Notes: a model not told the origin generated them from the sequence alone. Shown: positions 13,915-62,830, counted from the first letter of the stretch. The stretch: DNA of 64,000 nt from a virus (IMGVR_UViG_3300030419_006839:40852-104851), one strand, 5' to 3'. Translations and numbers: made by a program.

Positions 13915-13937
13915 AGTTAGTGTGAGGTTGTCGATAT
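13912..13937 (+). promoter_or_regulatory. Class I (sigma28-like) promoter upstream of dnaE
   Basis: TAAAGTTagtgtgaggttGTCGATAT; same elements and spacing as the other copies. Confidence 0.7.
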
Positions 13938-13940
13938 TCT

Positions 13941-13969
13941 AGTAAAGAAATTGAATTTTACCTGTTATA
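13941..13969 (+). promoter_or_regulatory. Class II promoter candidate upstream of dnaE
   Basis: AGTAAA-N16-TGTTATA (other copies have N17). Confidence 0.45.
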
Positions 13970-20370: not shown

Positions 20371-20396
20371 TAAAGTTAAATCAAAATAGTCGATAT
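20371..20396 (+). promoter_or_regulatory. Class I (sigma28-like) promoter
   Basis: TAAAGTTaaatcaaaataGTCGATAT upstream of ORF 20437. Confidence 0.7.
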
Positions 20397-29346: not shown

Positions 29347-29535
29347 ATGGATGTTAGTACAAATAGATCAGATAATAATACACCTGATTATTTAAGATAT
29401 ATTCAAGAAGCAAAACAAGCGGAAAGAAAACAAGAAACTAGAAATTTAATGAACGAAGAAAAAGAAAACAAAAATAAAAGCGTAGGCAATATAGTTCAAA
29501 CAACTATTGGAACTATCATTGACATCTATGCATAA
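29347..29535 (+). CDS. Small protein with YjfB-like (motility-associated) C-terminus
   Basis: RBS GGAGG before ATG 29347; ends IGTIIDIYA; directly upstream of the flagellin. Confidence 0.45.
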   Translation: MDVSTNRSDNNTPDYLRYIQEAKQAERKQETRNLMNEEKENKNKSVGNIVQTTIGTIIDIYA

Positions 29536-29554
29536 AAAACAGGAGAAATTTATA

Positions 29555-30439
29555 ATGTTAAATAGTGTAGCAAATAGAGCATATCAAAACTATAAAAAGA
29601 CAACTGCAGAAATTCAAGAAACTATGCAATTATTGGCAGATGGCAAACCTAAACTTAATCCAACAGATCAATCTAGAGTTAATAAAATGAACTCTAGAAT
29701 TAGGACATTAAAAACCGCAAATACAAATGTAAAAGAATCTTTAAACCTTTTGAGATCTGCAGATAGTGGAATTAGTTCTATTAGAAGTGTGGTTTCTAAA
29801 CTAAGAGGTATTGCTCAAGAATCTCAGTCAGAAGAAATTAGTGCCGAAGAACGTGCTGATTTACAGGTAGAGTATGATACTTTATATAAAGAAATAGATT
29901 TCATATTAGACAATACAGAATATGATGGAGTTAAACTACTTGATGGTACGTTTGCAACTAAGAATGTAGTTATTGATTCTGATGATTCAGTTCAAATAGA
30001 TATTGATGATATGACTGAAGGTTCATTACGTATTGGTGCTTATACAAAAACATTAGAAATTGGCGATCCTGAGATTGGTTTGGATAATGGTCAAGGTGGA
30101 GTTTATGCCCCAGGGGATTCTATAAGTATTGTCAAGTCTTCCGTAGACACTGTTGAAAAGGCTCAAGACGCAGTTGCACGTTTAGATTTTGCTTTGGGTA
30201 AGTTAGATGAGGAATCAGTAAAACTAAATTCAAAGGCTCAGAGATTTGAATTTACTACAAGTCATTTAACAAGTATGGTAGGAGTATTGGAAGAATCGGT
30301 TGATACCATCGAAGATTTTGATGAGGCTAGAGAAATGAGTCGTTTGGCACAAGCTCAAATAAGACAACAATCAGCCATTGCCATGATGGTACAGGCACAA
30401 CAATTATCTCAAACTATTCACCAATTACTTAACCAGTAA
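29555..30439 (+). CDS. fliC: Flagellin (divergent)
   Basis: Flagellin_N features (ANTNVKESLNLLRSADSGI; ERADLQVEYDTLYKEIDFILDNTEYDGVKLLDG) and Flagellin_C (DFDEAREMSRLAQAQIRQQSAIAMMVQAQQLSQTIHQLL); RBS AGGAG before ATG 29555. Confidence 0.92.
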   Translation: MLNSVANRAYQNYKKTTAEIQETMQLLADGKPKLNPTDQSRVNKMNSRIRTLKTANTNVKESLNLLRSADSGISSIRSVVSKLRGIAQESQSEEISAEERADLQVEYDTLYKEIDFILDNTEYDGVKLLDGTFATKNVVIDSDDSVQIDIDDMTEGSLRIGAYTKTLEIGDPEIGLDNGQGGVYAPGDSISIVKSSVDTVEKAQDAVARLDFALGKLDEESVKLNSKAQRFEFTTSHLTSMVGVLEESVDTIEDFDEAREMSRLAQAQIRQQSAIAMMVQAQQLSQTIHQLLNQ

Positions 30440-31391: not shown

Positions 31392-31464
31392 TATAACGTC
31401 ACTTTCCCTAAATTATTTACTAAAAAAATAAATCAGTAAAAAGTTTTAACCTATTAACGTTATA
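31392..31464. promoter_or_regulatory. Back-to-back class II promoters (hsp20 on -, thyX operon on +)
   Basis: AGTAAA-N17-CGTTATA at 31421-31392 (-) and 31435-31464 (+). Confidence 0.7.
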
Positions 31465-34097: not shown

Positions 34098-34454
34098 ATG
34101 TATGAATATAAAGCAAAGGTTGTTAAAGTTGTCGATGGAGATACTGTTGATTTTCTCGTTGATCTTGGTTTCGACACATGGAAAAAAGTTAGAGCAAGAT
34201 TGTACGGAATTAATGCTCCAGAAAGTCGTACAAGAGATCTTGAAGAAAAAAAACGAGGATTAGAATCTAAAAAATTTCTAACTGATACTTTATCTAATTT
34301 TGACAATGAATGTATTATTAAAAGCAGAGGGACAGGTAAGTATGGAAGATGTTTAGCTGAAATATTTATCGAAGATTTTAATCCTGAAGTCAGTGTTAAT
34401 CAGCAGATGGTTGATATTGGTTTAGCTGAAGAATATTTTGGTGGAAAACGCTAA
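34098..34454 (+). CDS. Thermonuclease (SNase-like)
   Basis: VVDGDT, RLYGINAPE, GKYGRCLA. Confidence 0.92.
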   Translation: MYEYKAKVVKVVDGDTVDFLVDLGFDTWKKVRARLYGINAPESRTRDLEEKKRGLESKKFLTDTLSNFDNECIIKSRGTGKYGRCLAEIFIEDFNPEVSVNQQMVDIGLAEEYFGGKR

Positions 34455-34477
34455 AGTTATCTAGAATTTGTCGATAA
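34452..34477 (+). promoter_or_regulatory. Class I (sigma28-like) promoter
   Basis: TAAAGTTatctagaatttGTCGATAA upstream of the DenV-like gene. Confidence 0.72.
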
Positions 34478-34509: not shown

Positions 34510-34998
34510 ATGAACGTCTTCTACTTAGATCATAACACTGATGATTGTGCCAAGTATCATAATGATAAGCATTGTGTCAAGATGATACTTGAGTATGCAC
34601 AATTATTATCTACTTGTCATAGGGTATTAGATGGAGATCAATGTATCGACAAAGTATATAAAGCAACCCATAAGAATCATCCTTCTGCTATTTGGGCTAG
34701 AAGTAATTCCGAAAACTATAAGTGGTTGTATAAGCTTTTTTGTTCTCTATCTAAGGAATACGAGTATCGTTATGATAGAAGTCACTTAAGTTTTGTCAAG
34801 TTAGAAAATGTATTAGTTAATCAACCTAAAAACATAGTTACAGGTAGTTTTAATCAACCAACACCAGCAATGCCTGAATACTGTAAGATTCCAAATAACT
34901 CATTAGCTTCTTACAGGAAATATTATATAAATGAGAAAAGCCATATTGCTTATTGGAAAAAAAGAGAAATACCTAGTTGGTATAAGGAGAACAAATGA
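34510..34998 (+). CDS. Pyrimidine dimer DNA glycosylase/endonuclease V family
   Basis: MNVFYLD, DKHCVKMILEYAQLL, THKNHPSAIWAR; RBS GGAGG. Confidence 0.85.
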   Translation: MNVFYLDHNTDDCAKYHNDKHCVKMILEYAQLLSTCHRVLDGDQCIDKVYKATHKNHPSAIWARSNSENYKWLYKLFCSLSKEYEYRYDRSHLSFVKLENVLVNQPKNIVTGSFNQPTPAMPEYCKIPNNSLASYRKYYINEKSHIAYWKKREIPSWYKENK

Positions 34999-39123: not shown

Positions 39124-42100
39124 AAAACTTTTGAGAGTAAAGTGAGATCAAAATTGCGAGGTGATAACTATTGGGACTAAGAAGACTCTGCGGTGAAAAC
39201 TAAGCTATGACTGAACTTAACTGGTTATGACTGATAACCTTGTGGAGAAAAAAGATATTTAATTACACCTTAGTAAGAATTTATAAAAACTCTTTAGTAA
39301 AACAACTCCGAAAGACTTTAAACTTTCAAGTTTAATAGACGCATACAAAATCAAAAGGTTTAGACTAAATAACAATTTTTTAAAACTTTTTTTATTCCCT
39401 GGAGTGCTGGACTGCGAGATCGGTCATTGATGTCATTAGACTCCTCAGTTAAGATCAGTTATCATCCAGGAGTCTACGTAAGTCCCTCTTAGATCTCATA
39501 CGATCATATTTTTTCTTGGATTTTAACCGAATTGCACCAGGAGCAATCGGATGCCTAACCTTTACGCCTGGATTGCTAGACTCAGTAACTGATAGTGATC
39601 GGACTGCTTGCTTTTTTCGTTTAGTTCTTTTCATTTTTTTTAACCCCCTGTTTTCTGAGAAATCGGTAACTGAGAAATATGCCTTTTTTGGGCTGGACTG
39701 CTGGAGTGCTTGGGCTGGAGTGTTAATGTCCCCAAATACATTGAACATTCGTTATCATAATACATAAAATTCCCCGTCATCGTCATACCATGATGTGTTG
39801 TCATTAGTTATAATATTTCTATTTAAAAGCTCTTCTCTGACTTCATGTAAGCAGAACCCATTAAAAGGATCAAGGCTATCCCCCTTAAGGATAACCTTTT
39901 CAGCAAGTGATTTAATTTTACCAGAAAAGGAAAATACTGGAATTGTCTCAATGTGTTTAATGCATTTCATAATTTTCCCTACTAAAATCCCATGTTTTAT
40001 CTATGATTAGTTCTTTATACCATTGATCTATGTCAGATGGATGATCTGATTCAAACATATAATGAGCGAGAATATCAATTAATTCTTCTCCATTATAGGA
40101 ATCTATTTCAAATTTCGCTAATGCTTTAGCTTTTCCCCACGTATCTAACTTGATTCCCACTTTATATCCTCCTGATTGAAATATTCTCTGGATGTTTCAA
40201 GAAAATAATAAATCATATTCCAATCGTCTTGTTTAATTTCATTACCATTTTCTAATTCTTGAATTAAACAATGTACGCTATTAGCTATGTCTCCAAGACC
40301 AAATAAGGTAGTTCCACCTAACATAATTCCCACTTTATAGCCTCCTGAATACGTTTTACTTTATCTGGGTCTACATTATTGTTTGTAATTACAGTTGATT
40401 TTTCAACTAATTCTGGATATGCGTATAATGCTTTCTTCCATATTGCTTCAACTAAGAAATCTTCTTCCTCTACGAACTCTTTAGTAGACTGATAGATACA
40501 AACGGTGTCTGATATATTATGGTAAATTTCCCAAGCATCTATATCATCAAAGTACCTTATATCCTTTGATGAATACGATCCATAGTTTAGTATTATCTTG
40601 ACGCTAATTCCGTCATCTTTTCCAATAGCCATCTGTCTAAGATGTTCTACTGATTTTATTGGTATATACTCTGGCATCTATATTTCCTCCTTCAGTAAAT
40701 TAAGTCTATGTCTTATGATAGAAAATACATCCTTAGTAAAATCACACTTACTTATTGGATCATCAGTCAGTAATTTGATAACAGTTTCCGTAGAAACTAT
40801 GTCAAAGTATTTAAGTAAATCTTCTTCTATTTCCGTTCCTACTTTTGCAATTTGGTATTTTGTAAAGGGAATACCTCCAGCCATTTCAATCTACCTCCTC
40901 TAAAAAATATTCCTTAACATCTTCTATATTAGATATTACATACCTTATACACCATCCAGCTATTTCAATATCATCCCATTCTTCTGGAAAAACATAATCA
41001 TAATTTTTTAATAACTCATCCATTTCTCTTTTCATTGATATCCTTTCTTGGTATAATCATACCTGTTTTTGCATCAATAAACCAGAAATCATCTTCACTT
41101 ATTTCTTTAAAGCCCTGCGGTTTTCCTTGACTTCCTGTGTATTCCTCTATCTCGATTATTTCATTTTCTTTATAATCTTCTTCAAAAGGTATTGATTCTG
41201 AATAGTTATGTAAAAAGTTAAGAATACTATCTTCAGTTAATTCTTCTCCATTTGTTTCAATATACTGAACAGTAAAAAATGGAACTTTATACCAAATATC
41301 AACCCTATATTTCATTGTATCTCTCCTGTAACTTTTTGCAGATTAATTGGACAACCCCTTATTCCATACAGTTCAGAAAAATAATCATCTATGAAATTAC
41401 GGCAAGATTCAAAAATGTCAGTCTTTATATCATCTTCTCCATATAAACCTTCTATATCTTCAAGTAGAAAGTATAGTTTTACAATAATGGTTGATTTAAC
41501 TTCTTCCTTAACCTCTTTACTTTCTAATTGTAAACTCATACATAAACCCCTTAAAGAAAGGGGGAAATTAATCCCCCAATTGTGTTAGATTCTTACTTGT
41601 TTCTGTCCACCATAAATACGAACAGCTTGTTTTGTAGCATCTTTTTCTGACAAACCTTGTAGCATCAACAATTCTTGTACAGCTTTTGCCTTTGCTATTT
41701 CAGGATTTGCCACTCTTAACGCTTCTTTACCAGAACTGTAGAATGTTCCATCTTGTTTTGGTGTTTGCATTCTATAATTACTTGGTGAAACTCCAACTAA
41801 ACTATTAAAGGTTCTGCGATTAACAGCATCAACTTCCTCAACACCACCAATACGAAATAGAAAGTCATTAAAAGATCGACTAATTTGCTTTTGAGTTTCA
41901 ATAGCGGTTACAGGTGTTTGGAATTGATTGGTTACTACGTTGCTGTTAGTTACATATGTCATATCAAAATCTCCTATGCCTTATTTGGCATTAATTGTTT
42001 AGTGTGTAGGAACAACCTTTGCTCCTACTATATAATATCGACAGTTTCGAGAAAACTTTAGCGTTTTTTTAAAATTATTTTCAATGATGCGAAAATTCCT

Positions 42101-42250
42101 ACCAAACTCCACCAACTTACAGCAGATAGGAAAATGATAACGATTGCCACAATTCCATATGCGACAATTTTAAGCAAGAAATCAAACACATTGTTACTAC
42201 TCCTTTATTATATAATATCGACAGTTTTGAGAAAACTTTAGAGAAAAATA

Positions 42251-43120
42251 TTATAAATCTTCTCTAATTCCAACCATAACAGGAAATCTTGGATAACCAT
42301 CATCTGTTATTTCTTGATACTTTACAGTTGCAAGTTTTCCAATGTGGTCATCTTTATTTTTCCAGTATTCTTTTAATTCCTCCTTTGTTACGGATGGTCT
42401 AACCCTAAAGCTAACTTTTCCATCTGTAACTAAAAATGATCCTAAAACATTAGGATGGTTATTTTGTTCTACTGCATCGAGTATAGTATATTCGGAATCC
42501 TTGAAATATTTATACTTAAAAAGTTGATTACTTCGTTTGTTCTCATATGGTAAGTTGTCAATTCTTACCATTAAACCCTCATATCCACATTCTATAAAGT
42601 CTTGACAATATTTGTCAAACATTTGTAAACCCTTATACGATATATGACCTAAACTTATTGTCTCTACCGTTTTAATATAAGGACTTATAGATACAGGATG
42701 TGTATAAGCTAAACGACTAATTTCTCTTTTCCTGTTACTGAAACTAGAATCCATAACAACGTCAAAAACATGAAACTGTATTTCTTTATGGTTGTCATGT
42801 AAATTTTTAGTTCGTGAAACAATACTATTTATCTCTGAAAATGTTAATGATTCATTGAATAGTTCACCGTCTAACCACTCTAAAGAACGGAATGTGCTTA
42901 ATTTACCAACTTTAATTAATTCTTGATGTAAATGTGGACAACTTGTAACCTCTTTTCCTGAACGTTTGAACATCTTACCATTTTTTAAATTACCAACGAC
43001 TCTCACACCGTCAAGTTTTGGTTGGACAAACATTTCATGTTGATTGTGTTCTGTATAACTATTGACTTTTTTACGACTTGATTTATCAGACAAGTCGTGA
43101 GCCAACATTGGTTTAATCAT
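42251..43120 (-). CDS. ATP-dependent DNA ligase
   Basis: QPKLDGVR, LDGEL, FHVFD, YEGLMVR, LFKYK, PRFP. Confidence 0.95.
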   Translation of the reverse strand: MIKPMLAHDLSDKSSRKKVNSYTEHNQHEMFVQPKLDGVRVVGNLKNGKMFKRSGKEVTSCPHLHQELIKVGKLSTFRSLEWLDGELFNESLTFSEINSIVSRTKNLHDNHKEIQFHVFDVVMDSSFSNRKREISRLAYTHPVSISPYIKTVETISLGHISYKGLQMFDKYCQDFIECGYEGLMVRIDNLPYENKRSNQLFKYKYFKDSEYTILDAVEQNNHPNVLGSFLVTDGKVSFRVRPSVTKEELKEYWKNKDDHIGKLATVKYQEITDDGYPRFPVMVGIREDL

Positions 43121-44018
43121 TTTTTTCTCCTTCGTCCTATACTATATAATATCGACAATTTTGAGAAAACTTTAGCCCTTTTTTGAAAAAAAACCACTTT
43201 TTTTTAAATTTATTTTTTCTGGCAATATAGTATTTTTCTTTGATTGGGATGGTTGATGGCGTGGGGGCCATTGCGAGGATGTTAATCCTCGACAATTTTG
43301 TTATAGATTTGATCTACCTTTTCAATTAATAGATTTAGTTTGTGATTTTCTATACGTTTTAATTCTTCTTGCACATTTCCTACATACTTAGCCTGTAGTT
43401 CTTCAATCATATATTCCATACATCCCATAGCATCTAATAATAAAACAAAATTATTCATTACTTTTTTTTCAAAGCTTAAATTTGTTTTATCTTTTAATTC
43501 TCTGTTTTGTTTTCTTATTTGCCATAGGTCATATACTTCTTGATCTTCTTTAGATGGTATTGTGTCATTATTCATTATTGACTCCTTAAGCTGTTGGATA
43601 TTGTTGAAAAAAGTTAATTTCTAATTGTTTATAATCACCATTAGCTTCCTTTTTTTTGATCCACTCTTGTTCTTCATTAACAATTTCTGCTATTTTTTCT
43701 AAAAATTCTAAGTTATTAAACATATGCGGTTGTTCATATATTGATATATTATTTATTTCAATTGGTTTATAACCTTGTAGGTTGATTGTTACATCAACGG
43801 AACTAATCGTGCAATCATCATGTTGATGACCGTAATAATTAAATTCTTCCATAGTAAACATATCTTCGTCAAAATAGTCTATTTCAGGTAAAAAATCTTC
43901 AATCTCAAAAGAATCATTGCATTCTAAAGTTCCAGAAACAAGGCTTGAAACCTCTGTTCTAAAATGGACTTTATTAATAGTAATGTCTTTAGCACTAATT
44001 TCTTGTTTTAATTTTAAA

Positions 44019-44228
44019 TTATCCATAAATATCTAACTTTGCTCCTAAATTTGGGTTAGTAGATTTTGCCTTTTTTCTTTCATGTTTTGCTAAATCTAAA
44101 GTTGCTTCTATCCTTATTTCTCTTTTTGCATGTTGGATTTCATTGTATAATTGAAATTGTTCCAACGTACTAAAGTTTGCTATCCTACTTTGTCTCAAGA
44201 ATCTTGGATTCATGAATGTAGTTATCAT
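44019..44228 (-). CDS. Small protein with YjfB-like C-terminus
   Basis: Ends NPNLGAKLDIYG. Confidence 0.4.
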   Translation of the reverse strand: MITTFMNPRFLRQSRIANFSTLEQFQLYNEIQHAKREIRIEATLDLAKHERKKAKSTNPNLGAKLDIYG

Positions 44229-44853
44229 TACTCACTCCATACTTTAATAGCATTTGATTTAATCTCTGAAACATAAACATCTCCTAAATCATAACTTCCC
44301 CAATTTAAAGGTGATGAAACACCACAAAACCAACGAGCATTTTTATTCTTTGCTTCATTTGTTGGTGATTGCCATTTTTTTAAAACTTTCCAAGTCCATC
44401 CTTCAGCATTTCCAACACCTTTCCATATTTCATATGGTTCGTTTAAATTTCTAGTTTTTGCACAATAGTTTTTCTCTCTTGCCATTCAGTACTCCTTAAT
44501 TCGTTCTTTGTTCCTATTATATAATATCGACAATTCCTAGAAAACTTTAGCCTTTTTTTCAAAAAAAGTGCCTTTTTTTTGATTTAATTTTTTCTGTAAA
44601 ACATTATTACTTTATTATAGGACGTGTTGATGGGCCTGGGGCCATTGATTAGGCTAACATTTCAGATTCCATAATCATCTAAAAAAGTTTGACATATTAC
44701 TTGACATAATTCATCTGTCAGTCTGTCTTTGACTGAAGGTCTATTTGAATTTTCTTGCTCTAAGTCATCGAGGTAGTCATAACATGAATTAGATAGAACG
44801 GTTATAATATCTTCCTGTAGTTGTTCTCTGAGTTCTTTAAGTATTTTCATTGA

Positions 44854-45588
44854 TTATGCCACCTTTCCATACTTTATTTTTTCAATCTGTAATAAATTTT
44901 TAGATTCTCCATTTGCTTTAGCTCCATGATATTCGTAAGCTATACATTCGATATTTTCATTCCAACATGCACGACATTCTTGACATTGACCACCTTGCGA
45001 ACCACTTGGACAAAAATATATACCACTTTCTTTGTTGTCTTTATGCAAACTAAATTCATCTTTAGTTAAGACTACAGAATGTGTTTGATGTTGATTTGGT
45101 TTGAATGGTTTATTCTTAAACGGTGAGCTAACTCTAATGGTTAAATTTTCAGGTTTGTTTACAAACTGTTTTTTATGTTGCCATTCTTTTGTTGGTAGCC
45201 AATGGTTTATATGTGGCGTTTTTCTACAAATCTCATATATATCTGATAAGTGTTGTAAGTCAATAATATCTCCAGCATCAAACCATCTAAAAAATGGAAC
45301 TCGTTGCATTAATTTTGAATTGTTTAGAATAAAAACTACAGATTCTACCCATAATTTTCTATTGGATAAATATTTTTGATAACGATTTTCTAACGCATTT
45401 TTTACATTAGAAAATTTATATCGTCCATTATCTGCATAACATCCAAAACAAGCAGAACCCTCCACTTCGATCAATACAGATCCCGTATCACAATATTCTA
45501 CTGGAATATTCCATGAAAGTGCTGGCATTTTTCCTGCATCGCTTAATCCACCAATATTTTCATTTGCTTGTTTAATTGTAGTTACCAT
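44854..45588 (-). CDS. Gp88-like Cys-rich phage protein
   Basis: KMP..SWNIP, C..GS...SACFGCYA, FRWFDAGD, HWLPTKE, CP...CQECRACW. Confidence 0.75.
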   Translation of the reverse strand: MVTTIKQANENIGGLSDAGKMPALSWNIPVEYCDTGSVLIEVEGSACFGCYADNGRYKFSNVKNALENRYQKYLSNRKLWVESVVFILNNSKLMQRVPFFRWFDAGDIIDLQHLSDIYEICRKTPHINHWLPTKEWQHKKQFVNKPENLTIRVSSPFKNKPFKPNQHQTHSVVLTKDEFSLHKDNKESGIYFCPSGSQGGQCQECRACWNENIECIAYEYHGAKANGESKNLLQIEKIKYGKVA

Positions 45589-45765
45589 TTTATTCCTTTG
45601 TCTTAAGTTTAGGTTAATTGCTTCCTATTATATAATATCGACAATTACTAGAAAACTTTAGCCCTTTTTGTAAAAAAAGTCACTTTTTTTTGATTTTATT
45701 TTTTCCTACAAAGATTGGAATGTTTTGGAAATGGGATGGTGATCTCGCCTACGGCATTGAGAAGT

Positions 45766-46005
45766 AAAAAAAGCAAGCTACTCGCCCCTCGATGTTTACT
45801 TTGAGTCGAAACTCATGACTTATAATCTAAGCCATATTCAACACCTCTTTGTACTTTCGGAGTTTTCACTTGCCGATGAGAGCAACGTCCAAAGAATGGT
45901 AGATCTACGTAGGACTTCTAGAATGTTTTGTAGCGTGGATCAGACGCATCACTCATTATGGAATATCCGCATTCGGATCTTACATGCTTTTAAGCTCATC
46001 TTTCC
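45766..46005 (-). ncRNA. Candidate multi-hairpin non-coding RNA
   Basis: GC-elevated intergenic stretch with at least 5 hairpins including a UUCG tetraloop, ending in a stem plus U run. Confidence 0.45.
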
Positions 46006-46014
46006 TATAGAAAT

Positions 46015-46434
46015 TTATAAATCCATATGGTAACCGTAATCCTCATCTGTACCAAAACCTGCAGATGCTAATGCTTCGCCATCATCTGAATAATCATCCA
46101 CAGTATTTAATGAATCTGTATCATAAAATGCTTGTTGCCACCATGAATTAACTTGATTTGTTAGTTCCTCATAAATCCTTGCTTGAAGGAATTGAAAAAT
46201 ATTTTCACAACTTGAAATAGAAACAAATCCAGAATCAGATTCAAAACCCAAATCTGTATCATCTTTTAAGTATTCGATATACTCCCAATTTGATGTTGGC
46301 ATTTGACGGTCAATTTCTTCAGTAATTAACCTTTCACTGTCAAAAGTACTAAATTCTTCAGCACTCATGTTATCAATTTCTGATCTAATTTCATCACAAA
46401 TATTTTTTGCTAATCTTTCAACTTTAATAGACAT
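46015..46434 (-). CDS. Ocr-like (T7 gp0.3) DNA-mimic anti-restriction protein
   Basis: Acidic; DLGFESDSGF...FLQARIYEELT resembles T7 Ocr DLEFEDSGL...ILQARIYEQLT (recalled sequence). Confidence 0.75.
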   Translation of the reverse strand: MSIKVERLAKNICDEIRSEIDNMSAEEFSTFDSERLITEEIDRQMPTSNWEYIEYLKDDTDLGFESDSGFVSISSCENIFQFLQARIYEELTNQVNSWWQQAFYDTDSLNTVDDYSDDGEALASAGFGTDEDYGYHMDL

Positions 46435-46830
46435 AAATTAAACTCCTAAAAAAATTTCATCTTGACAAGTTTGACACAAACCAGAAATTCTATATTCTTT
46501 TTTTGATATATCATCTCTGAAATTTAGATTTACTTTGTGTGGTTCTTTTGAAACACAAGAATTGTTAGTAATTGATTCTGTTCTATCAAATAGAGAATCT
46601 AAAAATATTTCAATTGGTCTTGATTTTTTAGTTGGTTTCATAACTTACCTCTATTATATAATATCGACAGTTTCAAGAAAACTTTAGGAAAAAATCAATT
46701 ATTTTTTGAAAAAAACTGATTTTTTTTTCTTCAATTTTTGATTCTTTCTTTTTATATCTGACACCTGTATGTAGATTCAAATCTTCACTTTTTAGCTTTC
46801 TATTGACATTATCTGATCGCTTAAATTTTG

Positions 46831-46980
46831 TCATTCAGCTTTACCAAGTTTTATGTTGCCGTTGCTTTCCTCTACTTTTGGATCATCATCTTTTTTGAGT
46901 TTGGCTCGTTTGATTCTTGCTTTGTGCCTTGCAAGTCTAATTCGTTTTTTACGATTCTGTAATTTTCTAGTGTGTTTCAT
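46831..46980 (-). CDS. Very basic 49-aa peptide (not in the ORF track)
   Basis: MKHTRKLQNRKKRIRLARHKARIKRAKLKK...; GAGG SD; directly after promoter 47006-47031. Confidence 0.55.
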   Translation of the reverse strand: MKHTRKLQNRKKRIRLARHKARIKRAKLKKDDDPKVEESNGNIKLGKAE

Positions 46981-47845
46981 ATTTCCTCTTTACCTCTATT
47001 ATATAATATCGACAATTTTGAGAAAACTTTAGCCCTTTTTGTAAAAAAAAGCAACTTTTTTTTGATTTAATTTTTTCTGAGAATACCATAAACCTGTGTT
47101 ATACCTGCATTGGTGTGTTGGAATACATTGAGAACCTTATACATTCCACCCGTTTAATCTTAAATCGTTTAAATGTGATTGTAAAGGTTCCAATGTATCA
47201 GTATTTACTGTTATTATATGGTTGGTTTCAACGACTAAAACATCGCATTCTTGTTTTGACTTACCAGAAAAAGTATTTATTTTTTTTCTGGTAAATTCAC
47301 GAATGGATACATTTTTATTTATTGCTTTACAAAAGTGTGTTGCTACTTTCATTAGAAACTCCTAACAAAATCATGGAAGTCATACGTTGATAATAATTGA
47401 GTCATTCTTTTTTCTATTTCTGTTGCGTGTATAATATCAGCAAATTTTAGGTTTTCCATTATTCGATGATATGCAACTATTGGAGGAATACTGTTGTCTA
47501 AATTATCATACATTAAATTAAAATCTTCCTTCAATTCTGAAATTTGTTCTTTTGTTAGTTTGTTTTCCCATTCTCCAAGCTTCATTCTTTTATTTAAGCT
47601 ACCGCTTTTTGAGAATGATAACATTGTGTCAATCCTTACCTTTGAGGCTTTTCTGGTTAAATCATTTTTTTGTTCTTTAGTAAATGATTTTGACACACCA
47701 TCTAAAACTTTAGAAATAAACTCTTTTGAAATGTTTACTTGTTGGTTTGTTAGATCTGCTAAATTTTGCATGTTTACCTCTTTTGTATACTATATAATAT
47801 CGACAGCTTTGATGGAAACTTTAGGAAAAAAGTGATTTTTTTTTG

Positions 47846-48001
47846 CCCCATTTTTTGAAAAGTTGGCACGATTTATAATCACTTTTTTGCTTTGAATCAT
47901 TTTTTGAATCTTGAAACCCTTGCTATTACTCGCTTTGGCGAGATTGCAAATCCCCTTTTTTCTTTTCACCCTCAAAGAAAGAAAAAAGGGGTTTGTAATA
48001 A
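47846..48001. repeat. 156-bp repeat copy 1 with long hairpin
   Basis: CCCCATTTT...GTTGGCACGATTTATA...ACCCTTGCTAT...ATTGCAAATCCCC...GGGGTTTGTAATAA. Confidence 0.85.
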
Positions 48002-48905
48002 CCTGTAGTTATACAGTTAAGATTAAATCTAACTGACTTAATTTAATAAGTCAGTTAGTTTATTATCCCATAAAATAGTTGACAATCTTGATGCTATTTC
48101 ATATATATGTTCTTCCGCACAATCATTTCCATTTTCGTTTTCCTGAAATTTATATTCACAAAATTCCACATAATTATCATATTCTACCTCTAATAAATAA
48201 GTTAGTATAGTTTGTATATCAATTGATATATCAAAAATTAAATTAGATCTTTCTTGTTCAGTCATTTTCTTCTACTATTTCACTCCATAAAGAAATAAAA
48301 TTTTCAGACTCATAATACATAGATTTATATAGCAAGTCTTGTATTTCATCAATTGGATTACTTGAAGTTTCAATAATCCATCTTGCTATTTTTTCTAACT
48401 GTTTGTCATTGTATGGTTCTTTCATAATTATATACCCATAATCCACTTATCTAAAGCATAATTAAATTTATTCTTTTCTTTTATTGGATCAATTCCAACC
48501 TTATGAAAAGTGTAGTTTACTGAATCATCCATATAGTCATAATACGTTTGTTGATTGTCAAACTTTGGTGATTTTCTCTCATTATTATAAGAATTACAAG
48601 CTTCATTAAAACCATTGAAAATATCTTGAAAAATAGTGTTTTTGGTTGAAAGTTCTTTACCGTTCCAAATTACTTTTGGCATTCTAATATTCTCCTTCAA
48701 ATCTCTCATCTTTAATCATTGTTGCTTGAAATTTTGGGTCTAATTTCATATAGATAGTTTTAGGTTTTGACGGTTGTGCAAGATACATCTTGCCATCATC
48801 ATCAATAAATAAAACCTTAAACCAAATTCCGAGAATTTTAACTTCGTAATTTTCCATATTAGTAATTTACCTCTAATATATAATATCGACAGTTTTGAGA
48901 AAACT

Positions 48906-49067
48906 TTAGCTTTTTTTGATAAAGTTTTTTCCTAAAGTTTCGTAAACTCTTTTCATAAATTTTTCACGATTTTTTCTATATTCCTTAATTCTTTTCTGTT
49001 CTTTAGTTAAACCAATAACATCAATTTTTTCGTGTAAGTTATGAGGGATTGTTTTAATAATATTCAA
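48906..49067 (-). CDS. 53-aa paralog of ORF 50013..50168 (not in the ORF track)
   Basis: TTG start; IPHNLHEKIDVIGLTKEQKRIK...FMKRVYETLGKNFIK. Confidence 0.6.
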   Translation of the reverse strand: MNIIKTIPHNLHEKIDVIGLTKEQKRIKEYRKNREKFMKRVYETLGKNFIKKS

Positions 49068-49190
49068 GTTGTTACCCTATTGGTAAAATATTCTGGTTTA
49101 AATTTCTTGCATCTAAAACTTGTCGGTTCACAATGCACCACTTTCTATAAATATCAGTTTTTTGGATAGTAAGTTTTTTAATTTTTCTTA

Positions 49191-49346
49191 CCCCATTTTC
49201 TGGAAAGTTGGCATGATTTATAATCGCTTTTTTGCTTTGAATCATCTTTTGAATCCTTCAACCCTTGCTATCATTGGGTTTGAGGAGATTGCAAATCCCC
49301 TTTTTTCTTTTCACCCTTAAAGAAAGAAAAAAGGGGTTTGTAATAA
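49191..49346. repeat. 156-bp repeat copy 2
   Basis: Same length and blocks as copy 1. Confidence 0.85.
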
Positions 49347-49381
49347 GGTAGAGAAGGGCAGTTAAGCCCAACTCTATTGAT

Positions 49382-49786
49382 TTACTTATCTATAGTCATT
49401 TTTATTGTAGCAATATATACAACACCACTTTTATCAGTTTCTAGTTGTTGTGTTTCAACCCTTGATTTTTTTAGGGTATTTGTTTGCAAATAATCAGCTA
49501 ATTCTGTTCTTGCCATATGTTTTGCTTTATTTATAGCAAGTTGTACATTTCTACTTCTAGCCTGTTTTATAGTTGTTATTTTCTTTGGTGTTTCTATCAC
49601 TTTAGTTGTTGGTTCTAAAGGCATATTAATATTTTTAGAAGAACATCCAGAAACACATAAAAAAACTATACCTAAAATTAATATTGAACCTAAAACAAAA
49701 ACTGTTTCGATTGCATCCTTAATATCATCTTTAATGCTTGTTCTAATTTCTTGGTTTTGCAATTGATTTCCTTGATACATTTTCAT
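49382..49786 (-). CDS. LPP20-like lipoprotein
   Basis: Lipobox VSGC; 'ARSRNVQLAINKAKHMARTELA'. Confidence 0.5.
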   Translation of the reverse strand: MKMYQGNQLQNQEIRTSIKDDIKDAIETVFVLGSILILGIVFLCVSGCSSKNINMPLEPTTKVIETPKKITTIKQARSRNVQLAINKAKHMARTELADYLQTNTLKKSRVETQQLETDKSGVVYIATIKMTIDK

Positions 49787-50604
49787 ATTGCTTCCTCTTA
49801 TCTAATCCAGTTTGGGTTATCTTTATAGTGAAATGATTTTTTCCAATCCTCAAATTTTTCTGCTTGTTTGTCTATTTCATAATCTTCTATTGCATCCCAT
49901 AATCCTTCAACTATATCATGGAAAATATTTTTTTCATTTTTTGGCCTTAATTTTCCATTCCAATTAATTTCTAAATTGTTAGTAATCCCTTCTATTTTAT
50001 ACATTGTTATTCCTATTTTATAAAGTTTTTTCCTAAAGTTTCGTAAACTCTTTTCATAAAGTTCTCACGATTTTGTTGATATTTCTTGATTCTCTTTTGT
50101 TCTTTAGACAAACCAATAACATCAATTTTTTCGTGTAATTTGTGGGGTATCGTTTCAATAATTTTCATATTTTCCCTTTGTTCTCTACTATATAATATCG
50201 ACAGTTTCAAGAAAACTTTAGTAGTTTTTTACAATGAAATGTAACTTTTTGATGAATTAAATAACCAATTTTCAACTAGAAACTTATCAATTAGATTATT
50301 TCTATATGCGTTTAGAAATTCCTCATCAGTTACAGATAACAAACAATCATCCCATGCAAAAAAAGTATTTTCACCATCTTCTATTTCATAAACTCCATTT
50401 TCCCTATCTATTTTCGTGATAGCATAATAACGACTTTTTCGGTCTATGTTTCTAGTTGGAATGGTTTTTACGATTTGGCGAATGCTGTGGTTCATAATTG
50501 TATTTCCTCTTATACTATATAATATCGACAGTTTCTAAAAAACTTTAGAAAAAAAAACAACTTTTTCAAAAAATTTTCCAAAGTAAAAAAATAATTTTTC
50601 ACAC

Positions 50605-50760
50605 CCCCATTTTCTGGAAAGTTGGCACGATTTATATTTGTTTTTTTGCTTTGGAACATTTTTTGAATCTCTAAACCCTTGCTATCACTGGCTTTGCCGT
50701 GATTGCAAATCCCTTTTTTTCTTCTCACCTATAGAGGAAGAAAAAAGGGGTTTGTAATAA
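50605..50760. repeat. 156-bp repeat copy 3
   Basis: Same length and blocks; compensatory change in the stem. Confidence 0.85.
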
Positions 50761-51228: not shown

Positions 51229-51261
51229 AATCATATGTGGGAATAACACCCACATATGATT
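51229..51261. terminator. Hairpin between convergent genes
   Basis: AATCATATGTGGG-aataaca-CCCACATATGATT, perfect 13-bp stem. Confidence 0.7.
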
Positions 51262-51774
51262 TAACCTCCCTTCATTATGTTTATCTTCTCTTGATACGTT
51301 AATTTTTCCCACAACTCTTTTTTATCATTTTTATCTTTTTCTTTACCTGAAACAATTTCTATTAGGCTTTTGTTTTTTTCATCCTTTATTGTACTCAGAA
51401 ATTCACATTTATATATCTTTACCTCAGTACGAGAACTTGGTTGTAGGAAAAATAAAGTTGAATCAGTTCTTAATGGGTATTCTGGATGTAAGTAATTGAT
51501 AGTCTTTCCTTTGCTTTTTATATCCACCTCTATAGTCTTTTTAATATTGTTATGTAGCCACTTGTTTTCTATATCAAAACCTACGACCACATTACTCTTG
51601 TAGTTAGATATATTGGACAACTCATTTTCAAGAACACATCTGTTGATTTTAATGATAAAAGTTTTTTTGTATGCATTAACAAACTCATCTAGATCAAATA
51701 GATTAATATTAAATCTATCAGTAAACACGTATTTCATTTATTTACACGACTCCTTCATATTAATTTACATAGTA

Positions 51775-51804
51775 AATAACACAATTATAGATAAAATATT
51801 TACT
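51775..51804 (-). promoter_or_regulatory. Class II promoter
   Basis: AGTAAA-N17-TGTTATT upstream of ORF 51737. Confidence 0.6.
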
Positions 51805-53412: not shown

Positions 53413-54291
53413 TTAGAAAGGTGAATCGTCTGATGCTGAATCAGAAGATATTTTATCTTGCATCATCTTCTTCAAATCAGCAGAAACATTATCGAAAGAA
53501 CTAGAGTTGGAATCGTTATTATTAAAACCATTACCATTTTGACTTCCACGATCTTCATGGACACCAGTTAGGTACTCTATTATCTCATCTCTAGTTCTGA
53601 TTCGATAATAATCCTCTAGGTTAATAGAGTTGTTTTTAACTAAGTCAGATTCTTCAGGACTTAGTGGTGATTCGTTTTTACCTGCAATAATTTCAAATTT
53701 CTGACCACCGAATCTATCAGGGTGGTACTTCAACAATAAATCATAACCAGACTTATCATCAGATGGATCTCCTCTATAAGACTCACTTAAAAAGTCTGCA
53801 TTAGGGTCACTTTCAGAAGGAGGAGTTGCCATTTCTACTAACTCATTAAATGGTGATTTCCTAAATCCAATAATACCCATCAATTCCTCTGGTGGTAAGC
53901 TTGACTTCTGTGCCATTCGGTCAATACAATTAATAGACGCTTGAAAAGTAGCTCTAGATGGTGTTGCATCCTTACCCCAAGAAGGAGGAGGCTGTTTAAA
54001 CGAGCAAAAACCTAAATCTGAGTGCTTTTCACCTTTTAGCTGAAGGTCATATACTTCATCAATTGGACACTTTCCATCTATACGAAGTATAGTAGATCCA
54101 CTATAGTCATAATTTATACATGGAATAACAATAGTAACTGATGTTCCCGTTGTCTTCTCAACTTCAATGAAATGTAGTTGTCTTCGTACAATATCTCCTA
54201 CTAGTCTTACTCTTGGATTTTTTTTCCAATCAATAAAGTTTGCCTTTGGTAAACTACCTGTGTTTTCAGCTTTAAGTTGTCCTAATTTCAT
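53413..54291 (-). CDS. Single-stranded DNA-binding protein (gp32-like)
   Basis: 'VRLVG', 'INCIDR', 'GDPSDDKSGYDL', acidic tail ending DDSPF. Confidence 0.7.
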   Translation of the reverse strand: MKLGQLKAENTGSLPKANFIDWKKNPRVRLVGDIVRRQLHFIEVEKTTGTSVTIVIPCINYDYSGSTILRIDGKCPIDEVYDLQLKGEKHSDLGFCSFKQPPPSWGKDATPSRATFQASINCIDRMAQKSSLPPEELMGIIGFRKSPFNELVEMATPPSESDPNADFLSESYRGDPSDDKSGYDLLLKYHPDRFGGQKFEIIAGKNESPLSPEESDLVKNNSINLEDYYRIRTRDEIIEYLTGVHEDRGSQNGNGFNNNDSNSSSFDNVSADLKKMMQDKISSDSASDDSPF

Positions 54292-54359: not shown

Positions 54360-54385
54360 TTATCGACTGTTTTTAGTTAACTTTA
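54360..54385 (-). promoter_or_regulatory. Class I (sigma28-like) promoter for the SSB gene
   Basis: TAAAGTTaactaaaaacaGTCGATAA. Confidence 0.7.
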
Positions 54386-54513: not shown

Positions 54514-54543
54514 TATAACGTGATTTATGTTTGTTTATTTACT
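54514..54543 (-). promoter_or_regulatory. Class II promoter
   Basis: AGTAAA-N17-CGTTATA. Confidence 0.68.
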
Positions 54544-56513: not shown

Positions 56514-57512
56514 TTAATAAAGTTCACTAAGATAGCCAAAATAACCACCGTCCTTTGGTTTAGCATTTGTTTTTATTGTATATATAACACCAGCAATAGC
56601 TTGAATTAAATCATGACTACCACCTGGAGGGTGGTCATATTTGTTTCCAACTCTTTCTAGTTGTCTTAACTCTTTGTGTGGTAGGTTAACTTCACCTTCA
56701 GGTGTTTTAACATTTAATGGATACATATTTATTCTTTTTTCATAAATAGCTTTAATCAACTCATCAAAAGGTTCAGTTGTTCTATCTATAGATAAGGTAT
56801 CGGCATCCATTCCTACAGCTTTCATGTTTTGTATAAAGTCTGCTGATTGGTAACCATCTAAAGTTACCCTATGTATATTATATCCTCTTTTGATTACATC
56901 AAAAATTATTTGTCTAATTGCTATTAATTGAACTGGACTTTCTTTATAACCTTTAAATGATGCTAGTAAATCAAAGGAGACTATTGGTTCTTTTATTTTT
57001 CTCACTCTATTTTGTGCATCTCTTTGTTCTTTTTCTACCCAATCTTCTGCATGACCTACAGCCAAACCTAGTCGATCTTGAGTTAATCCTATATCAACGT
57101 GGCAATATCTTCGTATGTGATCTTGACAAATAAAATCATCTCTAAAAACGGTATTAACTACTTCACCATTTGGTTGTAGGAACGGATTTTTTATAATTGG
57201 ATGTTTAAAATCTTTTAGTTTTTCAAAAGATTTTTCAATAAACTCTGAGTGTTCAATAGCAGGAGCGACTGCATCAATTGGATTAGCACCAAAATCTCTC
57301 GTAGCTAATGCAGGGTTTCTTAGAAACTCATCCATATAACTTTCTATTGTTTGGGTATCTCTCATTCTCCAAGTAGGTGCTTGTATTGCAAGAGATTTGT
57401 CAAATTTAAACATTCTGACATCATAATCGTACTTTTCTTTGACAAAATCTGGATTTAAAGAGGTTCTACTACTATAGTCTTGCTCTAAAGAGAAAATTGA
57501 TTCATCACTCAT
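56514..57512 (-). CDS. Terminase large subunit, C-terminal nuclease part
   Basis: APTW, HVDIGLTQDRLGLAVGH, VTLDGYQS, YDHPPGGSHDL; close to the portal gene. Confidence 0.85.
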   Translation of the reverse strand: MSDESIFSLEQDYSSRTSLNPDFVKEKYDYDVRMFKFDKSLAIQAPTWRMRDTQTIESYMDEFLRNPALATRDFGANPIDAVAPAIEHSEFIEKSFEKLKDFKHPIIKNPFLQPNGEVVNTVFRDDFICQDHIRRYCHVDIGLTQDRLGLAVGHAEDWVEKEQRDAQNRVRKIKEPIVSFDLLASFKGYKESPVQLIAIRQIIFDVIKRGYNIHRVTLDGYQSADFIQNMKAVGMDADTLSIDRTTEPFDELIKAIYEKRINMYPLNVKTPEGEVNLPHKELRQLERVGNKYDHPPGGSHDLIQAIAGVIYTIKTNAKPKDGGYFGYLSELY

Positions 57513-57868
57513 TTAAAAATACCAAAAAGAAATGAGAAAAATCCTTTCTTTTTCTCTTTTTCTATTATTTTTTCTGCTACTTTTTCAGAATCTATCTTAT
57601 ATTCTGAATTTTGTACACGTTCCCTTAAATCCTTCAGTTGTTGTTCTCTATCTGGATCAATTTCATTCTGTTTTTGTATGAAATCTAGGTTTTCCATTTC
57701 TTTTTTTTCGTTTTCACCTGAAAATTCAAAAATAGCTTTAACAATTTCTATTTCTTCATTTGTAAGGCTTTCTAGGTGACTTTTTAATACAAAATCTGTT
57801 CCTTTAGAGATTTCTATTAAATGTTTTGAATTTGTACCCAATTCTTTTGCTAACTCGTAAACTCTCAT
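57509..57868 (-). CDS. IF2_N domain fused to FlgM-like anti-sigma28 domain
   Basis: MRVYELAKELGTNSKHLI...LKSHLESL (IF2_N); DREQQLKDLRERVQNSEYKIDSEKVAEKII (FlgM C-terminal pattern). Confidence 0.72.
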   Translation of the reverse strand: MRVYELAKELGTNSKHLIEISKGTDFVLKSHLESLTNEEIEIVKAIFEFSGENEKKEMENLDFIQKQNEIDPDREQQLKDLRERVQNSEYKIDSEKVAEKIIEKEKKKGFFSFLFGIFK

Positions 57869-57877
57869 TACAACCTC

Positions 57878-58240
57878 CTAAAAGTCGTGCAAATAAATAG
57901 AATTTATTCTTTTTTCTCTTTTTTCTTTACGTAATTTATTTTGTCTTTTCTTGTATTTTTTCAAATCTTTTTTGTGTTCTTCTTTGAAGTCTGAAGCGAA
58001 ACCAACAACCCTATATATTTTTAACATAATAGCAAAAACGGCTACGGCACTTGTTCCACCAACGCTCATTGCAATACTTTCACCAATCTCAGGAAATTCA
58101 TTAAATATAGGAGCAAGTAGTCCCAAAATACCACCTAAACTTGCAAATTTAGACCATGTGGTATCATGAACCCTATCTATTCTCTTATCATACTCCTCAT
58201 CTATTAATTCCTCTTGGTCTTTCATTGCTATTATTCCCAA
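57878..58240 (-). CDS. Membrane protein (2 TM) between the terminase halves
   Basis: Two hydrophobic helices and a basic tail. Confidence 0.55.
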   Translation of the reverse strand: MGIIAMKDQEELIDEEYDKRIDRVHDTTWSKFASLGGILGLLAPIFNEFPEIGESIAMSVGGTSAVAVFAIMLKIYRVVGFASDFKEEHKKDLKKYKKRQNKLRKEKREKRINSIYLHDF

Positions 58241-59025
58241 AAATCTCTTCTATTACCACTAATTGCTATTTCTCTCATTTTCCTTACCGCAAAAGAATCT
58301 GTAGATTTTGGACTAGTTATAACTATTATTTTATAGTGATCTGGAAACCTTGTCTTACAACTACCTAAGAGTGAATTGTATATCTCATTTGCTGCGGATT
58401 TGTTCATATTATCTACAAACCAATCTGCTTCATCGAGTATTCCTTGTTTTGTATTATAACCCAACCAAGCAGTTGATTTTGAATGACCACAAACTCCAAT
58501 TATGTTTTTGGGAAAAATTATTCTATCTTTTGTATCAATATAGTATGGAACCCTGTGTCCATCTAAACTAGATAGTTCAAAAGCACTTTCCACTTCAAAA
58601 AAACACTTTGAATGTTTTAACTTTTCTCTAAGGTCAGTAAAAACTACATCCCTGGCTTGGTGTTGGTTTGTTGCCATATTTAAAAAATAAATGTGAGTTC
58701 CTACCGCTAAACTACTATATCTTTGTGGGTTTTTTAACATTGCAGTTTGCCAGATACCTCTACACTGATAAATAGATGAGTTAAAACTCTTTCCAGAACC
58801 TTTTCCTAGTACCAACCAAGCTTCTCTAACTTCAGGATCATCTACGTGCTTTAATAGACTTAAATTAGCATCTGAAATATCTAGAGATAAGTCCATATAG
58901 TCTTCACTCAGTATAAATTCCTCCATATCGACATTTTTTGTTTCATAATCACCATCAGATTGTGAAACTTCTATCCTTTTTTTTAATTCATCAGCAAAAT
59001 TTCCTAATAAAGATCCAGAATTCAT
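58231..59025 (-). CDS. Terminase large subunit, N-terminal ATPase part
   Basis: Walker A LGKGSGKS, NMATNQHQA, Walker B GILDEA, motif III ITSP. Confidence 0.85.
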   Translation of the reverse strand: MNSGSLLGNFADELKKRIEVSQSDGDYETKNVDMEEFILSEDYMDLSLDISDANLSLLKHVDDPEVREAWLVLGKGSGKSFNSSIYQCRGIWQTAMLKNPQRYSSLAVGTHIYFLNMATNQHQARDVVFTDLREKLKHSKCFFEVESAFELSSLDGHRVPYYIDTKDRIIFPKNIIGVCGHSKSTAWLGYNTKQGILDEADWFVDNMNKSAANEIYNSLLGSCKTRFPDHYKIIVITSPKSTDSFAVRKMREIAISGNRRDFWE

Positions 59026-62760: not shown

Positions 62761-62790
62761 AATAACAAGTTTTTTTGAGTTTGTTTTACT
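62761..62790 (-). promoter_or_regulatory. Class II promoter heading the nuclease/packaging operon
   Basis: AGTAAA-N17-TGTTATT. Confidence 0.62.
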
Positions 62791-62804: not shown

Positions 62805-62830
62805 TAAAGTTATTTATTATTGGTCGATAA
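62805..62830 (+). promoter_or_regulatory. Class I (sigma28-like) promoter of the sigma-like gene
   Basis: TAAAGTTatttattattgGTCGATAA. Confidence 0.72.

Follow-up and report, generated by a model that had tools for sequence, protein, structure and literature searches.

Class III flagellar promoters are read by the alternative sigma factor sigma28 (FliA/SigD/WhiG), and the FliA consensus is TAAAGTTT-N11-GCCGATAA (PMC7286023). In the open complex at Pseudomonas aeruginosa fliC the two elements are TCTAAAG (-36 to -30) and GCCGATAA (-15 to -8), and according to the authors neither the sequence nor the length of the sigma28 spacer is conserved (PMC12784957); in vivo, E. coli FliA also binds a GTCGATAA variant (PMC4183435). 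Here we analyse a stretch of viral DNA of 64,000 nucleotides (IMGVR_UViG_3300030419_006839:40852-104851, referred to as the window), the right-hand 64 kb of one linear IMG/VR virus contig of 104,851 bp from a marine phage with a GC content of about 30%, in which a bipartite site, TAAAGTT-N11-GTCGATA (class 1), recurs upstream of early genes. Like sigma28 class III promoters, the class 1 sites have TAAAGTTT in full, 6/8 of GCCGATAA, a free spacer and a C ahead of TAAAG as in TCTAAAG, and the same genome encodes an FlgM anti-sigma28 domain. As at the hag promoter of B. subtilis, the phage sites are preceded by UP-like tracts. The differences are that the phage sites precede early, replication and sigma genes instead of a flagellar regulon, that no such site occurs in the 110 nt before the small gene that precedes the flagellin gene of the phage, and that the phage spacer is 10 nt rather than 11 nt in 16/17 copies.

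Near-identical promoters that head small genes of no assigned function are familiar from the early arrays of lytic phages (the host-takeover module of SPO1, T5 and T4), and the promoter/stem-loop (PeSL) cassettes of the T4 type resemble the promoter-flanked cassettes that are duplicated here. Those arrays match the primary-sigma consensus of the host, whereas the present array matches that of a flagellar alternative sigma and does not pass a sigma70 scan. Sigma/anti-sigma cascades such as those of SPO1 (gp28, gp33/34), T4 (gp55, AsiA) and G1 (ORF67) are comparable in that a phage sigma is made early, later genes have a promoter class of their own, replication genes carry promoters in tandem and the phage itself encodes an anti-sigma; what differs is that the anti-sigma is here an FlgM domain fused to IF2_N and that the early promoter class is sigma28-like. 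To our knowledge, the phage anti-sigmas described so far target the housekeeping sigma. The prophage FliC-P/TldR system also has a phage-borne flagellin, yet there a single cargo gene is concerned and here the core early and replication programme. A full-text literature search found neither a phage early programme on sigma28-type promoters nor a phage FlgM.

Repeated sites upstream of the early genes

Exact copies of TAAAGTT-N11-GTCGATA number 15 in the window, where 0.03 are expected from shuffled sequences, and with at most one mismatch the count is 16, a number reached by 0/100 shuffles. The one-mismatch match (GTTGATA, 50057-50081, +) lies antisense within an open reading frame (ORF) and has no downstream promoter features, and it is therefore taken as a chance match. 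Together with a copy whose spacer is one nucleotide longer (N12) and an exact copy outside the window, the contig holds 17 class 1 sites (16 in the window, 15 N11 and 1 N12, plus 1 outside), 11 of which are clustered (10 N11, 1 N12) and six dispersed (Table 1). An earlier reading of the window, made from the sequence alone, had reported eleven minus-strand copies in about 8.5 kb, one of them with the canonical longer spacer, and five dispersed copies. All of these were recovered: the array runs from 42036 to 50547, its N12 member is the copy at 47798-47823 (-), and the dispersed copies begin at 13912, 20371, 34452, 54361 and 62805, the fourth having been placed one base off, at 54360.

The clustered copies agree almost completely over some 32 nt, cTAAAGTTTTCTnnAAAnTGTCGATATTATATA(R)TA, and upstream of them lie a T-run and an A-run, tracts which fit an UP element. 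Six class 1 copies have up to 95 nt in common and adjoining gene segments of 118-195 nt are duplicated, and part of the array therefore grew by cassette duplication. The six dispersed copies have in common only TAAAGTTA and GTCGATA at a fixed distance, with a spacer of free sequence, which is the signature of two recognised blocks and a free spacer. Every true copy continues into (T/A)TATA(R)TA and then, in one orientation and on the same strand, leads at a distance of 15-75 nt to a Shine-Dalgarno sequence and start codon. The alignment of the copies thus bore out the sequence-only reading in its claims that the dispersed copies retain two blocks around a free spacer of fixed length, as in a -35/-10 pair, and that A-tracts lie upstream and an ORF start shortly downstream. 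A purine is conserved 7 nt after GTCGATAT; at the copy 48884-48908 the window has T at this place (48876, 8 nt after GTCGATA), and two other samples have G. Invariant blocks, a fixed spacer length and the correct orientation and distance to the gene start are the behaviour of a bipartite -35/-10 element, and judged from these features the 17 class 1 sites are almost certainly promoters.

That the repeats are mainly something other than promoters, namely borders of mobile or recombinogenic cassettes, hairpin promoters of the N4 type or operators for some DNA-binding protein of the phage, is very improbable. The stretch of up to 95 nt common to six copies and the duplicated gene segments would suit cassette borders, and so would the Logan contigs of four public runs, which over 41900-50700 of the window end at almost every promoter copy; many of them match in part and then continue into unlike sequence (share 0.45-0.78), and different promoter copies are connected by a few short-sided joints, possibly repeat artefacts. 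However, breaks are expected at repeats longer than the assembler word length, promoter function is compatible with recombination at promoter repeats, and the dispersed copies share two short blocks only, always correctly placed before genes. As an observation in its own right, the breaks and joints fit either mosaic early regions that recombine at promoter repeats or assembly artefacts.

Promoters of the N4 type each have a conserved stem of 5-7 bp with a 3-nt loop. For a hairpin promoter one could point to the spacer, in which AGTTTT/AAAACT can pair over 5-6 bp in 7/17 copies, all of them clustered, and to the presence in the window of a 3318-aa ORF of no recognised family. The hairpin is weak (-1.5 to -2.1 kcal/mol) and missing from 10/17 copies including all six dispersed ones, and it is therefore not part of the signal; RNA-polymerase motifs were found in no frame of the contig, nor in the 3318-aa ORF. 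An N4-type hairpin promoter for a virion RNA polymerase was accordingly rejected. The giant ORF itself (3958-13914, +) has no Pfam or PDB match and gives only faint tail-fibre PHROG matches near residues 2640-2745.

Phage DNA was found in metagenomes (marine, seawater, plankton) from at least 8 studies. Megablast of the promoter array against INPHARED phages gave no match, a scan of IMG/VR for the exact 32-nt consensus gave nothing, and the 14-base bipartite pattern gave, among the matches listed, only single, chance-level matches in IMG/VR, on at least 113 contigs.

Sigma28-like blocks and the housekeeping alternative

In the -35 block TAAAGTT is invariant in 17/17 copies and TAAAGTTT is present in 11/11 clustered ones, preceded in most of them by a C, and the block matches both the TAAA of sigma28 promoters and their extended form (TC)TAAAGTTT. 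The -10 block consists of an invariant GTCGATA followed by T or A and has the CGA core and the -11 A of sigma28 promoters, its second base being off consensus. GTCGATAT equals 6/8 of GCCGATAA and 7/8 of the SigD form, ...GATAT. The 11-nt distance between the TAAAGTTT and GCCGATAA positions (15 nt from TAAA) occurs at the copy 47798-47823 and in two relatives of the phage, L001 and L004. These belong to five IMG/VR contigs whose portals are 59-63% identical to the phage portal (62-63% in L001 and L004), and they carry TAAAGTTC-N11-GTCGATAC and TAAAGTAT-N11-GTCGATAC between the portal and SSB-like genes. At this site, the counterpart of the copy at 54361, TAAAGTn and GTCGATA are kept with the canonical spacer and the flanks differ. 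Numbered as in P. aeruginosa, class 1 transcripts are predicted to start about 8 nt after the -10 block. On the strength of its blocks, class 1 is probably of the sigma28 type.

It is improbable, by our estimate, that the housekeeping sigma of a host with an unusual -35 preference reads the sites as TAAAGT-N17-TATTAT promoters that have a strong UP element and, in CGn, an 'extended -10', and that the likeness to sigma28 promoters is coincidental. Early phage promoters usually use the primary sigma of the host, and class 1 has a YGn-TAT architecture in common with the second class of sites described below. The sequence-only reading had entered the caveat that the motif can be read as TAAAGT-N17-TAnnnT. 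TAnnnT is indeed kept at the required distance in 16/17 copies, but the caveat is weakened: 0/17 copies pass a sigma70 scan, and the hexamer at the aligned place in L001 and L004, TACTTA or TACTAA, has lost its final T, the nearest good TATAAT lying 22 nt from TAAAGT. Class 1 does not have the housekeeping sigma70/SigA form of a TTGACA-like -35, a distance of 16-18 nt and a TATAAT-like -10, TAAAGT matching TTGACA at 2/6 positions. Sigma70-type sites are not in excess in the early region (50 found vs 62.8 expected) and none coincides with class 1. A housekeeping reader would also leave the invariant GTCGA without a role, would place the start set by TATTAT on the Shine-Dalgarno sequence in several copies, and would make the FlgM domain in the same phage a coincidence. 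In its favour, the housekeeping -35 consensus of Campylobacter jejuni, TTTAAGTnTT (PMC3824568), is close to cTAAAGTTTT, which makes a host with an unusual housekeeping -35 possible.

The sequence-only reading had called the sites sigma28-like, and at the level of sequence this stands, by the two blocks, the canonical spacer of the relatives and the FlgM domain; which sigma reads them is something we infer. The further idea of that reading, titration of sigma28 holoenzyme by so many copies, is conjectural. With a confidence just short of even, and as part of the whole explanation given below, we regard the 17 sites as promoters, both genuine and strong, that belong to the flagellar sigma28 (FliA/SigD) type, with a cTAAAGTT -35 and a composite GTCGATAt -10.

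A probable phage sigma factor, an FlgM fusion and a second class of sites

The phage encodes a 246-aa protein that, by its modelled fold, is a sigma factor. All Foldseek and VIA-align matches of the model (predicted local confidence, pLDDT, 60) are sigma factors; the sigma-2 domain aligns with Z 9-10.7 and a root-mean-square deviation of 2.2-2.5 A over about 88 residues, the full-length matches include SigH, SigD, sigmaS and sigma28, the length is that of group-3 sigmas, and the nearest clusters in the ESM protein language model are viral sigma factors. The sequence is strongly diverged. Pfam Sigma70_r2 remains below its cut-off of 24 (14.3 bits, E 0.036), region 4 has no match, and the sole NCBIfam match is FliA at a non-significant E of 0.085. 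A six-frame search of the contig for PF04542 did not find the domain, the profile of the protein matched nothing among PDB sequences, and the protein had no match in Poribacteria genomes, to which we return below. By hhalign its probability against three Poribacteria FliA was 0.3 and there was no signal against an RpoD-like sigma, the alignments being too shallow to discriminate in either case. The protein is almost an orphan, with one real homologue among 1.84 billion representatives (P0004, 25% identity); pattern-based searches of IMG/VR returned no close relatives of P0004, the ligase or DnaE.

The sigma gene lies in a divergent intergenic region in which the sole promoter-like site directed toward it is a class 1 copy. 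As no promoter but class 1 is visible for the gene and read-through is impossible, a factor present at infection must read class 1. At the orthologous places the distant, higher-GC lineage of L002, L003, L006 and L007 has TATG(T/C)TATA-type sites instead, and the syntenic sigma gene of L006 and L007 stands behind a housekeeping promoter of textbook form, TTGAAT-N17-TATCAT, that has TGTG as its -16 motif; class 1 therefore occupies the place of an early promoter read by the host. Since class 1 must be read at infection and the relatives use a host promoter there, the simplest reader is a host holoenzyme, in its sigma28 form to judge by the sequence.

A second motif, AGTAAA-N17-YGTTAT (class 2), occurs 5 times in the window vs 0.06 expected, and 9 times in the genome vs about 1, where the genome set allows N17(16) and a trailing (A) and thereby adds the site at 13941-13968 (+) and three outside the window. 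Class 2 heads the genes for ribonucleotide reductase, thyX and hsp20, the packaging operon and one gene of the structural region, and before the helicase, polymerase and SSB-like genes it forms tandems with class 1. Class 1 heads the small early genes, the ligase, the GP88-family gene, DenV, the Mre11-like operon and the genes for replication and for the sigma. Such a split of the genes looks like two successive temporal classes. As a side observation, class 2 can be taken either for an extended -10 (YGnTATAwt) or for a geometry like that of sigma28 promoters in which CGT replaces CGA; its TAAA lies exactly 17 nt before the YG(T)TAT core, the distance that is canonical for sigma28. A scheme of two sigma28-type factors, with the host form on class 1 and the phage form on class 2, is speculative.

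Within the class 2-headed packaging operon, between the two halves of the terminase, lies a gene for a 119-aa fusion of IF2_N (35.8 bits, cut-off 25.3) and FlgM (Pfam PF04316, 30.9 bits, cut-off 25). In a profile search of genomes the FlgM domain scores 31.7 bits; the NCBIfam FlgM equivalog, at 21.7 bits, remains below its cut-off. By the Pfam match the C-terminal sigma28-binding helices are present, and the N-terminal export region is replaced by IF2_N. The gene is absent from the relatives, and a 17-kb contig carries an FlgM-like gene that is 87% identical (P0006). In this phage and all relatives the large terminase (56514-59025, -) is encoded by a 264-aa and a 332-aa ORF, separated by 718 bp here vs about 256 bp in L002, L005 and L006, which lack FlgM; in this phage the gap is filled by the IF2_N-FlgM gene and a 115-aa membrane-like ORF.

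These elements suggest a scheme that we put forward tentatively as the best explanation, in which the early programme begins with a host sigma28 holoenzyme, control then passes to the phage sigma, and class 1 is silenced by the FlgM-like protein. On entry, host RNA polymerase carrying host sigma28 would read class 1, with transcripts expected to start at the conserved purine, 7-9 nt after GTCGATAT, and would thereby express the early small-gene cluster, the ligase, the DnaB-like helicase, the DnaE polymerase, the SSB-like, Mre11-like and DenV proteins and the phage sigma. The phage sigma, made early, would direct class 2 and so the genes of nucleotide metabolism, packaging and structure. The IF2_N-FlgM protein, from the later class 2 operon, would then bind the sigma28-type sigma and end class 1 transcription. 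The dependence on sigma28 would tie productive infection to motile, sigma28-active cells. That the phage also encodes a flagellin homologue speaks in favour of the scheme. Which sigma serves which class, when each step occurs and what the FlgM-like protein does are points that we infer from the arrangement of sites and genes.

The main competing account has class 1 read by the 246-aa protein itself, as a very diverged sigma28-like sigma whose cognate anti-sigma is the FlgM-like protein. The sigma28/FlgM module of the phage would in that case be self-contained, class 1 would be delayed-early or middle, and the sigma gene would be under positive autoregulation. Autoregulated alternative sigmas are common, and the group-3 length, the fold matches to SigH, SigD, sigmaS and sigma28 and the non-significant FliA match point the same way. 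Complex modelling places residues 91-111 of the FlgM-like protein on the C-terminal half of the phage sigma with an ipSAE interface score of 0.71, the best of three controls reaching 0.33; the mark applied is reached by 58/80 solved complexes and 2/110 mismatched pairs, at least 70% of contacts recur between runs and the partner has a pLDDT of 59 or more. Such a result supports an interaction between the C-terminus of the FlgM-like protein and the sigma that the phage itself encodes, and it fits the phage sigma as reader, although the score may be recall of solved sigma28/FlgM structures. This account also meets a problem of bootstrapping, in that class 1, the sole visible promoter of the sigma gene, needs a reader that exists beforehand. 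The relatives express their syntenic sigma from a housekeeping promoter. Moreover, no sequence-level link of the protein to FliA was found, the hhalign probability and the sub-threshold Pfam region 2 being as given above, and class 2 would be left with the host housekeeping sigma as its sole candidate reader. We consider this account rather unlikely.

Returning to the scheme with host sigma28, the complex model and the C. jejuni consensus count against it, and so do several further points. The spacing of TAAAGTTT to GCCGATAA is 10 nt in all but one of the copies, against the canonical 11. The contig is estimated to be about 73% complete, and the missing part may encode a further polymerase or sigma. 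No RNA runs are listed among the sequencing runs that carry phage DNA. The last point concerns a lead to the host. The phage ThyX (31794-32474, +) is 61-65% identical to ThyX of metagenome-assembled genomes (MAGs) of Candidatus Poribacteria and Nitrospinota, the best matches (65% identity) being Poribacteria MAGs, and three Poribacteria MAGs each have a bona fide FliA (217-220 bits) and 7-11 flagellin matches; from these sequences Poribacteria are a possible lead to a flagellated host phylum rather than an identification. The GC content of the MAGs is 40-50% vs 30% in the phage, and the sigma28-type sites upstream of flagellin genes in these MAGs have the form TAAACAT...CCGATAAGGTA, with 18 nt from TAAA to CGATA where the phage has 16 and the canonical distance is 17. 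The sequence-only reading had proposed to ask whether the flagellin promoters of the host use the 14-nt spacer of the phage sites; in the MAGs of Poribacteria, the only candidate phylum found, they do not, the spacer being 2 nt longer than in the phage, and a shared spacer rule is not supported.

Neighbouring genes and biological meaning

Table 1. Promoter-like sites and genes discussed in the text. Positions are those of the window unless noted.
Feature	Position	Strand	Context
Class 1 copy	genome 7909 (outside window)	-	dispersed; exact; upstream of DnaB-like helicase gene
Class 1 copy	42036-42060	-	upstream of ORF 41585-41962
Class 1 copy	42216-42240	-	upstream of small ORF 42058-42189
Class 1 copy	43150-43174	-	upstream of ATP-dependent DNA ligase gene 42251-43120
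Class 1 copy	44525-44549	-	upstream of ORF 44228-44485
Class 1 copy	45636-45660	-	upstream of GP88-family gene 44854-45588
Class 1 copy	46662-46686	-	upstream of ORF 46438-46641 and acidic 139-aa ORF 46015-46434
Class 1 copy	47007-47031	-	upstream of small ORFs
Class 1 copy	47798-47823	-	N12 (canonical) spacer
Class 1 copy	48884-48908	-	base 48876 is the consensus purine in other samples
Class 1 copy	50196-50220	-	N11
Class 1 copy	50523-50547	-	first of array; upstream of ORF 50229-50495
Class 1, dispersed	13912-13936	+	upstream of DnaE-type DNA polymerase gene 14002-17214; tandem with class 2 at 13941-13968
Class 1, dispersed	20371-20395	+	upstream of small ORF and Mre11-like phosphoesterase gene
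Class 1, dispersed	34452-34476	+	upstream of pyrimidine-dimer glycosylase (DenV) gene 34510-34998
Class 1, dispersed	54361-54385	-	upstream of 292-aa SSB-like gene 53413-54291; N12 in L001 and L004
Class 1, dispersed	62805-62829	+	sole visible promoter of phage sigma gene
Class 2	62762-62790	-	heads packaging operon containing FlgM-like gene
Class 2	54515-54543	-	just past portal gene; tandem with class 1 at 54361
Class 2	51776-51804	-	upstream of ORF 51261-51737
Class 2	31435-31463	+	upstream of thyX operon
Class 2	31393-31421	-	upstream of hsp20 gene
Class 2	13941-13968	+	tandem with class 1 before DnaE-type polymerase gene
Divergent phage sigma factor (by modelled fold), 246 aa	62865-63605	+	fold, language-model neighbours, sub-threshold Pfam match
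IF2_N + FlgM fusion, 119 aa	57509-57868	-	inside packaging operon
Flagellin homologue	29507-30439	+	Pfam Flagellin_N and Flagellin_C above cut-offs

The flagellin homologue scores up to 88 bits with NCBIfam flagellin models, below their cut-offs, and pattern-based searches found no close relatives of it in INPHARED or in 185,579 species genomes. Its gene is preceded by a 62-aa ORF (29347-29535, +), and neither class 1 nor class 2 occurs within 110 nt upstream of that ORF. In the early array, the acidic 139-aa protein (-) has 24% Asp+Glu, 6% Lys+Arg and no family match; its ORF is followed by a GC-richer non-coding stretch (45766-46014) that ends in a terminator-like hairpin at 45790-45768. The 292-aa SSB-like protein (-) has no family match, its acidic C-terminus ...SDDSPF resembles the interaction tip of bacterial SSB, and its gene lies beside the portal gene in all relatives, here with the tandem class 2 and class 1 sites upstream. 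Between the portal and SSB-like genes L002 (about 7760-7840) and L003 (about 3640-3720) have, by eye, a tRNA-like sequence, where this phage has promoters only. A second giant ORF ends at 2142 of the window; counting the part before the window it has about 1995 aa, and it has no Pfam or PDB match.

Taken as a whole, and held more tentatively still than the scheme itself, the picture would be that of a lytic phage which has rebuilt its temporal programme on the sigma28/FlgM pair, so that the immediate-early, replication and sigma genes fire only from sigma28 holoenzyme and hence only in motile cells, a late FlgM fusion that cannot be exported ends class 1 transcription and the phage sigma runs the late genes. 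The question lends itself directly to testing, since the 17 sites are defined and there is a single gene each for the sigma and for FlgM, and if the picture is true the sites would also form a compact natural set of sigma28-type promoters of graded divergence that could be used in synthetic circuits. The FlgM fold would have been newly put to use as a viral timing device. Sigma28-active, motile cells would be those that a flagellum-dependent phage can reach, and the phage would represent a new form of viral sensing, at the step of transcription initiation, of the physiological state of the host (motile or non-motile).

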